Shown here: piece by piece, positions 3,001 to 6,000 of the stretch
Position numbering within the stretch: the stretch's first letter is position 1
Layout: every line of letters begins with the position of its first letter
DNA from: Bacteroidales bacterium
GTDB lineage: Bacteria; Bacteroidota; Bacteroidia; Bacteroidales; UBA932
Direction: 5' to 3'
Assembly (NCBI GenBank): GCA_031556695.1
Contig: JAVBSQ010000138.1
Location: forward strand, 1-27,735
DNA: 27,735 nt
Made by a program: the position numbers

Positions 3001-6000
3001 CAAGATGCCGGCTATAAATTTGAATTATTGCCCGGTAGCTTTAATTTGCAGTATAAGTGGTTATTAGGATCTATATAATGTTAAATATTGTTGCTTTTTA
3101 TGAAACTTGTTGCTTTTTATGAAACTACAACTTATCTTTGTAAAAATTATTTAAATGGATATACTTAATCAACATATCATTGATAGTTGCACCGGCCGGC
3201 ATGCTTCTTCTAAGAAAGCAATGATGAAGTTTTTTGAGGCACTATTGCAATGTCAATCGAAGACGCATACAGATTTAATAAAGACTTTCCCTAGTGCAGA
3301 CTATGTGGGTAACAATAGATATGTTTTCGATATTCAAGGAAACCGTTACAGAGTAATATGTGTGGTAATTTTTATTCATGGTGCAGCATCTATACGATTT
3401 GCCGGAACACATGCAGAATATGACAAAATTAACGCTTCAACAATATAATTATGAATACATTTACATCACGACAAGAGTACAATGCAGCAATGTTAAGGGC
3501 TGAAGAATTAATAGCTAAAGCTACAGCCGCAGGAGGTTTTGAGAATCTATCAAAAGAAGAAGTGGATGAATTTGGCAACATAGCTGCAGCCGGTAGCAAA
3601 TATGAACTTGAGGTATTGAAAATATATCCATTTACCGGAAAGAGTGCTAATCCAGCTCTTCTTCAATTGGAAGAAGAAATGTCCCGTCGCAAAATGAAAC
3701 AGAAAGAGATGGCGACACTCCTGGGAATATCAACTGCACGCTTTAGCAATATCTTGAGTGGTAAAAGCCCTATTAACTTCAAACTAGCCAAGGCTCTGCA
3801 TCAAAAGCTTGGGTTTGATGGCAACTTAATCTTGGACAACGTATAACATGATTTTAGTCTATCTCATATTGGCAGCCATCATCCTGGTGTGGCTATCCTG
3901 GCCCCGGATCCAGCAGTTGAACTTTGACAGGGCGCTGATGCAGGAGCATCGTAGAAGGGATAGGACTCCCATGCCACGCTATTATGACAGTGTTGTTGTT
4001 TGGGAGTCCTATTTTCGGGCTATACCTAATCCCACTGTAGGTGTACTACGCATTGAACTGGCTTTCTGTGTCGATGATGCCGGCAATCCGCTCCCGGAAT
4101 ATCAACCGATATACGATCTGATCACCAATCGGATGACTGAACTGGGATATAGAGTTACATTCGACCCAGTCCAGCATTCATTCGAATGGTTTGCTAATAG
4201 CTAATTGAACCCGCCTATCCCCGGCGGGTTTCTTTTTGTCCTTTAATCCACCACTAATGATTGTCATTTTTGCACTAAACACGTGTAAAAATGATAACCG
4301 ATCAATATACCAAGCCCTTATTCAATAGTGAGGTAGCTTCCGAAATTCTGCTTTCGGCCGGACAAAAAATGCTCAAAGCCCAGCAACGGGAAGCGAGTGT
4401 TTATCTTTTGTCCGCCTCCGGCCGGCTGCTATCCAGTCTTCAGCAATCTGTGTCTGTTTCCCATACCGGACAGGGATTATCCATGCTATTGAATTATCCT
4501 AAGCACATCCGCTTTTTAGACCTCAAAAAAACAGGTAAAAAACGCAAAAAACGAAACTATACACCTATCTACAACAAGTATGTGTATGGCTACATTATGG
4601 GGTGTGCTTACAAACGCTTATCTGTCGGTTTGGGTTATGCGATAAAGAGAGATGTTTTTGACAGGCTTACAGCCTTAAATCTCAAAACTAAAACAGTATG
4701 AGCCTGCGCGATGAAATAGTACGGCTAGAGGTAGAACTAACCTCACCGAAGACACAAAATGAGTTGGCCGATAAACTCAAAGATGCTCAGATTCAAAGCA
4801 ACAATTTACGTAAGGAACTTGAAGCCTTGGAGAAAGCTATGGCCGTGATGGTGGCACAGGGCAAGAAGGAAACTGAGCAATATAAATTGATGGAAAAACA
4901 GCAGAAATCATACCGATCTGCTCTTTCTGACTCCAACAAAGAAATCAAGCTATACTCCGCCGGCATGGATAAATCAAATATGTCCGCCTCCCAGTTGAGA
5001 AAGCGAATGCTAGAACTGCAATCAACGCTAAACTCCATGAATAAAAAGGCCGACCCGGCAACTTGGAGCAAGCTGAATCAAGAGTATAAAGAAACTATCC
5101 AACTCTATTCAAAAATGCGAGCAGGGGCGAATGAAACGGGCGCAGCTTGGAAAGCTATGGGTAATATCTTTGCTGGTTTTTCCTTATCCAATCTTGCAGG
5201 TAAGGTTTTATCCGGAGTCAAAGATATAGCTACAGGTGTTGCTAATTCCACTCAAGATCTATCTGATTATTGGGCAGAAATGACCACCGGTATGGAGCAT
5301 TCCTATCAATCATTTCTCCGTACTATTGCTACCGGTGATTGGAGTAATTTGTTTTCCAACATGAAAGAGGCATACAAGCTTGGGAAAGAAATAGCCAAAA
5401 TGCTTGATGAACTTTTCGAACGAGGGAATTCCTATGATATCTCATCTGCAAAAGTAGCTGCAGAAATAGAGCAGTTGTATGACACTCAAAAAAATGTAAA
5501 TCTTTCGCTAGAAGAAAGGAAACTAGCTGGAGAGAAAATTATCGCGCTGACACGCAAGCAGGCAGAAGTTCAAACGAGTATTGCAGAGCAAGAATTAGAG
5601 GCACATAAGAAAAATTTGGACTTCATTACTAAGATGTCTGATGCAGAAAAAGAATATTTTATTGAAAACTACAATCAAAATATTGAGAATATTCGTCTTG
5701 CTGGTGAATTAATTGAAAAAGAAAAGGAGTTAAAGAAAGAGACAAATTATGTTATGGCACCGGATCCTAATGATAAGAGCAAGTTGTCTAATAGAGAATT
5801 TTATACTGAAAAAGGGAAACTAATAAAGCAAGAAATAGATCTGCTTCAAAAAAACTTTAAAGCGTACGAATTTGCCTATGATGCAATGAAAAAATATAAT
5901 GTAGCCAATGATGAGAGTATAAAATTGTATGTTGATTCCCTTGTAAAAAAAGTAAATATTACAGCCGAATCCGAACGCTCTATCCGAAAAGTTAAGGCTC

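Follow-up and report, generated by a model that had tools for sequence, protein, structure and literature searches.

Candidate bipartite late promoters with a host-type −7 box and a phage-only upstream box in a Bacteroidales prophage and its relatives

This article concerns two sites in a 27,735-nt stretch of DNA (the whole of which is called the window here; contig JAVBSQ010000138.1 of assembly GCA_031556695.1, positions 1 to 27,735, forward strand) from a Bacteroidales metagenome-assembled genome (MAG). The window holds the right part of an integrated prophage, and each site carries an upstream box, TGTCCTTT, placed 20 nt ahead of a −7 box of the type used by the host primary sigma factor. 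Both sites are very probably promoters, of the tail genes and the lysis genes of the prophage, respectively, and comparison with related phages supports the suggestion, made in a preliminary description of this DNA, that they are late promoters specific to the phage, composed as they are of a host-type −7 box and an upstream box confined to phages. The reading that we favor, and consider likely on this comparison, is that of bipartite late promoters in which the host −7 box is combined with a phage box read by a phage late activator; that the window promoters need a phage factor is, taken as a claim of its own, fairly probable. Direct observation covers the motif and the rigidity of its spacing, the genes around it, and its confinement to phage DNA.

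Conserved core and geometry of the sites

The preliminary description had reported three identical blocks with fixed spacers, TTTTTGTCCTTT-N13-TGATT-N6-TTTGCA, at 4233-4274 and 9974-10015, and direct reading of the sequence confirms both strings at these positions on the plus strand. A repeat search of the window groups the two 42-nt strings as one 47-nt repeat family, and the full tripartite pattern occurs twice in the whole 1.72-Mb, 181-contig MAG, in both cases at these same sites. Relatives were gathered from an alignment (A1) of homologs of the 136-aa protein encoded directly after site 1, for which distant relatives only are found (at most 43% identity). The 60 loci obtained in this way, 27 from species genomes and 33 from IMG/VR, are all Bacteroidales MAG prophages or viral contigs that are syntenic with the late module of the window, and the identity of the protein across them is 25-42%.

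On the late strand of the 60 loci, TT(T/C)G stands exactly 24 nt after GTCCTTT in 76 of 126 distinct sites and 23 nt after it in 6 more; on the opposite strand, the 24-nt spacing is found in 1 of 44. The consensus of the 76 sites is (c)TGTCCTTT, 20 nt, TAnnTT(T/C)G, and it includes columns that were left free in the search: the T before the G is present in 92% of sites and the C before that in 59%, and the −7 box begins with T in 70% and A in 91%, at four and three bases before TT(T/C)G, respectively. The box is a single asymmetric 8-mer with no dyad partner at a fixed spacing. The CA following TTTG is weakly conserved (C 46%, A 38%), and the TGATT columns carry no information across the 76 sites. 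The spacers of the two window sites are identical at 12 of 24 bases, a level that 7.8% of randomly paired family spacers also reach, and TGATT was rejected as a functional element, its columns being uninformative and the spacer identity lying within chance. The element is thus bipartite rather than tripartite, since TGATT is not conserved: the two outer blocks recur far beyond chance once the relatives are included, and the middle block has been dropped. The core proposed earlier, TTTGTCCTTT, has likewise given way to (c)TGTCCTTT, located 20 nt before TAnnTTTG at the −33 position.

At site 1, on the plus strand, the upstream box TGTCCTTT lies at 4237..4244 and matches the invariant box of the 76 related sites; it is followed by a spacer at 4245..4264, which includes TGATT and is not a conserved element, and by the −7 box CATTTTTG at 4265..4272, 20 nt past the upstream box and a 7/8 match to the host-type TAnnTTTG. 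Site 2, also on the plus strand, has the same upstream box by direct reading at 9978..9985 and the −7 box TTAATTTG at 10006..10013, again 20 nt further on and a 7/8 match. The preliminary description held that both copies lack the TA of the host −7 box, which is half right, as each copy keeps one of the two bases (CAnnTTTG at site 1, TTnnTTTG at site 2). Its broader view that the −7 boxes are systematically weak does not hold for the family, in which they are consensus.

In Bacteroidota, the canonical −7 box recognized by the primary sigma factor is TAnnTTTG (PMC7366714), and the canonical sigma-ABfr promoter is described as a −33 TTTG together with a −7 TAnnTTTG (Bayley et al., 2000, as related in PMC7366714 and PMC3090145). 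The phage sites resemble such sigma-A promoters in having the same −7 box on the same strand and at a similar distance from the start codon, as well as an upstream element located about 20 nt away, but differ in that the −33 TTTG is replaced by TGTCCTTT, so that the position reads CTTT or TTTn. A G follows the box in 7 of the 76 sites (9%), which falls short of a host −33 TTTG.

Other readings of the sites, and other matches to the pattern, were set aside. A sigma-54 reading (GG at −24 and GC at −12, TGGCAC-N5-TTGCW) was rejected on inspection, as both window sites contain TTGCA but have TGATT around −24, one base out of register. An E. coli-type sigma-70 reading was likewise rejected on inspection; a sigma-70 scan is not applicable to this phylum. 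Near-copies of the first block on the minus strand at 2802-2822 were discarded for having no proper spacing to a −7 box. The exact tripartite pattern has two matches only in IMG/VR (in L001 and L002), both intergenic and correctly oriented, and one of them precedes a tape measure gene; their number is near chance and neither phage shares proteins with the window, so these matches were treated as uninformative. In L002 (7286-7345), a contig unrelated to the window, the gene after the pattern encodes a tape measure protein (phrog_25337); the −7 box there lies between 13-nt inverted repeats, with a T-run next to them, and the TGATT match is part of the hairpin. The locus of a holin homolog, L003, lacks both an intergenic space and the box.

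Restriction to phage DNA and position before late modules

A profile built from the 76 related sites and scanned over the MAG ranks site 2 first (25.1 bits) and site 1 second (19.1 bits), with the next match at 15.3 bits; in the window, the scan gives two sites only at 10 bits or more, and there is no further such site downstream of site 2. In the host genomes of five relatives (2.1-2.9 Mb), 14 of 16 pattern matches lie inside a prophage, on its late strand. Among 661 host-type promoters in the MAG, TTTG peaks at spacers of 19-20 and TGTCCTTT is found at spacer 20 in none of them. With the box absent from host promoters at this spacing, and most of its matches borne by prophages, the box therefore occupies the host −33 place, yet host promoters do not use it. 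A comparison of prophage with host chromosome had been proposed as a check on the motif, and it comes out in favor of a phage-specific promoter. In a sample of 400 genomes from across the order, the frequency of the strict pattern looks about equal to that of a reversed control, as judged by inspection of the per-genome table.

An open reading frame (ORF) starting with ATG lies within 90 nt of 74 of the 76 sites, at distances that fall into two groups, 3-9 and 14-22 nt. At site 1, the 136-aa gene has its ATG 18 nt beyond the G of the −7 box, inside the main family mode of 14-22 nt, and at site 2 a holin-like gene has its ATG 15 nt beyond the G. Each phage has some 3-4 sites, all on the late strand and at the starts of virion or lysis modules. 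In relatives, they are positioned where the late region begins, ahead of a gene for an S49 protease (the head-gene position), before a conserved gene about 7 kb further on, at the tape-measure gene, after the homolog of the 678-aa tail protein gene of the window, and before fiber genes. Window site 2 corresponds to the place after the 678-aa gene, which is positionally conserved in the nearest relatives, and site 1 belongs to the tape-measure module. Both placements given in the preliminary description are borne out: site 1 follows a strong intrinsic terminator hairpin (4207..4231, plus strand; −15.5 kcal/mol, z −4.2) that closes a HigB/HigA cargo island, and site 2 stands ahead of a lysis cassette, with holin-like and endolysin genes downstream. 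The T-run of the island terminator leads into the box of site 1, and the hairpin itself is separate from the box.

The start codon lies 3-9 nt past the −7 box in 28 of the 76 sites, which implies that the corresponding late mRNAs would be leaderless or nearly so. In Bacteroides thetaiotaomicron, about 3.7% of 5′ untranslated regions are shorter than 10 nt, i.e., leaderless mRNAs are rare (PMC7366714).

At 21 of the 76 sites (control, 4 of 76), the box doubles as the 3′ arm of a GGACAG-loop-CTGTCC hairpin that is followed by a T-run, as counted by the presence of the reverse complement of the box-ending xGTCC 5-mer within 31 nt upstream. Terminator and promoter are fused at these sites. The promoter before a conserved ‘METI.G.DA’ gene has a second conserved element, GGAAATATGAC, located 5-8 nt upstream of the box (L019:3000-3030, L021:3620-3650, L040:2405-2435, L054:2505-2535, L064:3700-3730, and others), which often pairs with the box as a short GACAG/CTGTC inverted repeat. 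This element may be no more than the end of a coding sequence with its stop codon, or it may be an additional site for binding.

Proposed mechanism, candidate activator, and rival explanations

From these observations we infer promoter activity, activator dependence, and a candidate for the activator, in the following scheme. In the prophage, an integrated Bacteroidales siphophage, the primary sigma factor of the host would read the host-type −7 box, which would set the transcription start some 10-14 nt before the start codon; the phage box, (c)TGTCCTTT, exactly 20 nt upstream, replaces the host −33 TTTG. Host RNA polymerase alone would use the window promoters poorly because the −33 contact is missing; a phage late activator would bind the box and recruit or re-aim the host sigma-A RNA polymerase, and the virion and lysis genes would thereby be silent in the lysogen. 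Site 1 would restart tail-gene transcription past the terminator of the HigBA island, and site 2 would drive the lysis cassette and the tail-fiber genes. The activator itself could belong to a family of about 150-230 residues whose gene, in relatives, immediately precedes the first late promoter.

This family was recognized when the 18-20 kb upstream of the first box was compared in four relatives. In three of the four, a conserved ORF of about 170-250 aa stands just upstream of the first box, with a small ORF alone between the two in the loci read, and it has no Pfam match and no useful PHROG match. A profile search finds the family, single-copy and in prophage, in 23 of 35 records; with a profile of 22 sequences (A3), a further record is clearly matched (G402, E 6.9e-9) and another marginally, on a different contig (G406, E 8.4e-4). 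Three complete phages carry remote syntenic ORFs of 172-175 aa, with profile-comparison probabilities of 86% and 93% and a weak third. A search of 1.84 billion returns 807 cluster representatives at E 0.001 or better, and the Atlas annotation of the family consists of viral hypothetical proteins only. No description of the box or of the candidate protein was found in the open-access literature. That this protein family is the late-promoter factor is a serious possibility, to which we give a little less than an even chance.

The AlphaFold model of the candidate, a confident one (predicted local distance difference test score, pLDDT, 83), has a region, residues 110-175, that resembles winged-helix domains (Z 5-6.3, VIA-align), including those of PadR-type regulators, cullin WHB, E2F/DP, and ORC, a likeness that is suggestive only of a winged-helix-like C-terminus. 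A Foldseek search of the model against the PDB gave nothing at E 0.001 or better; taken with the best VIA Z of 6.3, this want of a significant match to a solved structure does not show that the model represents a new fold. The most conserved residues are those of the last helix, with its L-R-K-D-W-Y-R motif, which would suit a recognition helix reading the invariant box.

The protein and the box were also compared in their distribution. In 19 genomes found via the protein and not via the tail gene, there are 13 boxes in 244 kb downstream on its strand and none on the opposite strand, and in the upstream control from the same genomes there are 1 + 1 boxes in 213 kb. A cross-tabulation of the 400 genomes, tallied by hand, has a strict-pattern match in 11 of 21 protein-positive genomes versus about 21% of the others, a low-powered comparison, as the strict TA excludes the two sites of the window itself. 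The box does not differ between subfamilies of the candidate protein, which leaves no box variants with which the subfamilies could co-vary. In protein-carrying loci without TGTCCTTT, a second type of box was looked for by eye and none was seen. Nearly all of the loci L073-L090 have a GTCC(C/T) core followed by an A/T-rich run, e.g., CTGTCCTAAAAAATC, within the first 15-40 nt after the candidate gene ends; the next ATG is 15-25 nt further on, and there is no −7 box at the usual 20 nt; this core may be a second type of site for the same protein, e.g., for autoregulation.

A number of points weigh against an activator-dependent promoter or against this candidate for the activator. Each −7 box of the window misses one consensus base, and several genomes that carry the protein show no box in the 20 kb searched. 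The protein was not found in the window MAG, whose prophage middle is unassembled, and its presence there is assumed. Any conserved phage gene would co-occur with the box, which makes co-occurrence weak evidence for this particular one, and the winged-helix match, with Z under 8 and nothing from Foldseek beside it, is below the level of trust. About a quarter of the family sites use the box as a terminator arm, so that conservation could partly serve termination. The box is also invariant though the candidate has diverged to 17-25% identity, a pairing that fits a conserved host partner at least as well.

One rival account takes the box to be a variant of the −33 element that the primary sigma factor of the host recognizes directly, the promoters being constitutive and silence in the lysogen being due to repression or to a lack of read-in, with no phage activator. 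The −7 box of the family is fully canonical, the end of the upstream box (CTTT or TTTn) sits exactly at the place of the host TTTG with a spacer of 19-20, and the box does not vary across phages of several host families despite great divergence of the phage proteins; moreover, a published survey of F. johnsoniae turned up no −33 motif whatever, which suggests that the −33 element may be dispensable in some Bacteroidota (PMC7366714). We nevertheless think such host-read promoters unlikely, given the 0 of 661 host-type promoters with the box at spacer 20, the frequency in 400 genomes that looks like that of the reversed control, and the prophage location of 14 of the 16 matches in five host genomes; strong selection on an 8-bp box that the host polymerase leaves unused is hard to explain without a dedicated reader. 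Such a reader might be a phage alternative sigma factor of the extracytoplasmic function (ECF) type, or a protein consisting of sigma region 4 only, with TGTCC as its −35 element. TGTCC-N16-TGATT in the two window copies has ECF-like spacing, three of five near-complete relatives have early genes with helix-turn-helix matches resembling region 4, and a 133-aa protein of LuxR/GerE type is kept in three of the four early regions compared. The region 4-like matches are, however, below the Pfam cut-off and absent from two of the five genomes, TGATT lacks conservation, and downstream stands the −7 box of the host primary sigma factor and not an ECF −10. Sigma-70 region 2 (PF04542) is absent from the five near-complete relatives covered by the search (the window’s own phage being incomplete), with 10 control genomes positive, which argues against a phage sigma factor and leaves it very unlikely. 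The preliminary description had allowed for either a phage activator or a phage sigma factor; the former is favored, and the small winged-helix-like protein is the better candidate.

Two further accounts give the box a role other than activation. It could serve mainly as a termination or RNA signal, whether as the 3′ arm plus U-tract of terminators that separate the modules or as an antiterminator target, with its link to the −7 box being secondary; the hairpins at 21 of 76 sites and the terminator T-run directly preceding site 1 would be explained in this way. The other 55 sites, including both in the window, have no hairpin involving the box, it is the sequence of the box that is conserved and not its pairing alone, and the distance to the −7 box is rigid, yet a terminator would need no fixed distance of 20 nt. 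With the −7 box in use, moreover, the box would lie upstream of the start and outside the downstream transcript, and we regard a primary role in termination as remote. The box could instead be an operator for a repressor of the late genes placed over the −33 region, given that it overlaps the region contacted by polymerase and is phage-specific and multi-copy. With no host −33 element present, there would hence be little to repress; the lack of a dyad partner for the 8-mer tells against an operator as well, as does the conserved neighboring gene, which is situated where early and late regions meet and late activators are usually encoded, and we think an operator scarcely to be expected.

A side observation concerns the LuxR/GerE-type protein, which is encoded early in three relatives at lengths of 133-143 aa (L068:6976-7377, L069:10677-11087, and L072:14820-15251, minus strand). 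It combines a helix-turn-helix at the N-terminus (Pfam E 1e-4, slightly short of the cut-off) with a hydrophobic segment at the C-terminus and may be a membrane-tethered regulator.

If a phage activator does read the box, the invariance of the box, the divergence of the protein, and the fusion to terminator arms would together cast the late modules as insulated terminate-and-restart units under one protein. Such one-protein control would act through a conserved surface of the host polymerase and would be an analogue, in a temperate lineage of gut phages, of the sigma appropriation of phage T4. That the candidate represents a new class of phage late activator, one that replaces the −33 contact of the Bacteroidota primary sigma factor with each late module a terminate-and-restart unit, is a tentative and rather doubtful extension of this argument.

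Prophage layout, known systems, and significance

The window begins with two plus-strand late genes of unknown function (1-1487), syntenic homologs of which lie ahead of the tail genes in relatives, and an Ant-like anti-repressor gene stands among the late genes on the minus strand (1543-2076), in the part of the cargo island before its plus-strand unit. A terminator with an 11-bp stem at 1498-1523 is common to the Ant-like gene and the upstream plus-strand late genes. The plus-strand genes after site 1 (4291..9972) encode the 136-aa protein, which has no Pfam or PHROG match and directly precedes the tape measure gene, the tape measure protein (4698-7934), and the 678-aa tail protein (7936-9972), and they have syntenic homologs in about 60 loci. 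After site 2 (10029..17307, plus strand) there follow the holin-like gene (10029-10511), the endolysin gene (10508-10900), the gene for a 1268-aa tail fiber (11414-15220), and further late genes.

The cargo island interrupts the tail region of the window, and relatives such as L035, L038, and L008 are without it. It offers a contrast to the phage sites, in that its plus-strand unit has a host-type promoter that matches perfectly (TTTG, 20 nt, TACGTTTG; 2176..2207, plus strand). The plus-strand unit at 2176-4231 comprises this promoter, a leader, three small ORFs, HigB (3155-3448), HigA, a helix-turn-helix antitoxin (3451-3846), a 118-aa ORF, and the terminator; the leader, about 185 nt in length, is strongly folded, with an 18-bp stem at about 2329-2396 (z −4.8).

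The right end of the prophage (17313..18691, minus strand) consists of the integrase gene (17313-18581) and a 15-nt attachment (att) core, GTCGGGGTAATGTGA, at 18677-18691, which is the 3′ end of tRNA-Pro(CGG) (18677-18750, minus strand), the site of integration; host genes begin about 19.4 kb into the window. The core recurs in the MAG at C165:7302-7316, adjoining a gene for an XRE-type helix-turn-helix repressor-like protein, early genes, and a primase gene truncated by the end of the contig. Its recurrence beside phage early genes places attL and the early region on contig C165, and the late region and attR of the same prophage on C152. The middle of the prophage, between C165 and C152, is unassembled, and in relatives this stretch holds the candidate activator gene and the first late promoters.

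Comparable phage promoters are known elsewhere. At T4 middle promoters, a MotA box at −30 is used through MotA/AsiA sigma appropriation. The sites described here are similar in that a phage box replaces the −35-type element and the downstream element of the host primary sigma factor is kept, with a small phage activator as the expected reader; they differ in belonging to a temperate siphophage, in the host sigma family, and in that no co-factor was identified. Homologs of the MotA C-terminal domain and of AsiA (PF09158 and PF09010) gave no match in the five near-complete relatives, in a search in which no positive control rang. Among temperate phages, dedicated activators of late promoters include Mu C protein (lys, I, P, and mom) and the Ogr/Delta proteins of P2/P4. 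There, too, several late operons with a good downstream element and a poor or missing upstream one share an activator site, and the activator gene is expressed before the late genes. Unlike the single asymmetric 8-mer at −33, the sites in Mu and P2/P4 are dyads located further upstream and bound by zinc-finger or helix-turn-helix dimers, to which the present candidate, having no Pfam match, bears no sequence relation.

Almost nothing is known of late-gene timing in temperate gut Bacteroidales phages, and while activator-dependent late promoters are a familiar kind, we know of none described in this phylum. The TGTCCTTT box is common to dozens of related gut Bacteroidales phages and is probably read by an uncharacterized phage protein. 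As a short, rigid, phage-only signature, it marks late operons in uncultured prophages, separates phage genes from cargo driven by host promoters, as in the window, and points to a single candidate regulator. If the activator proves true, the box and its protein would constitute a compact orthogonal switch for engineering Bacteroides.

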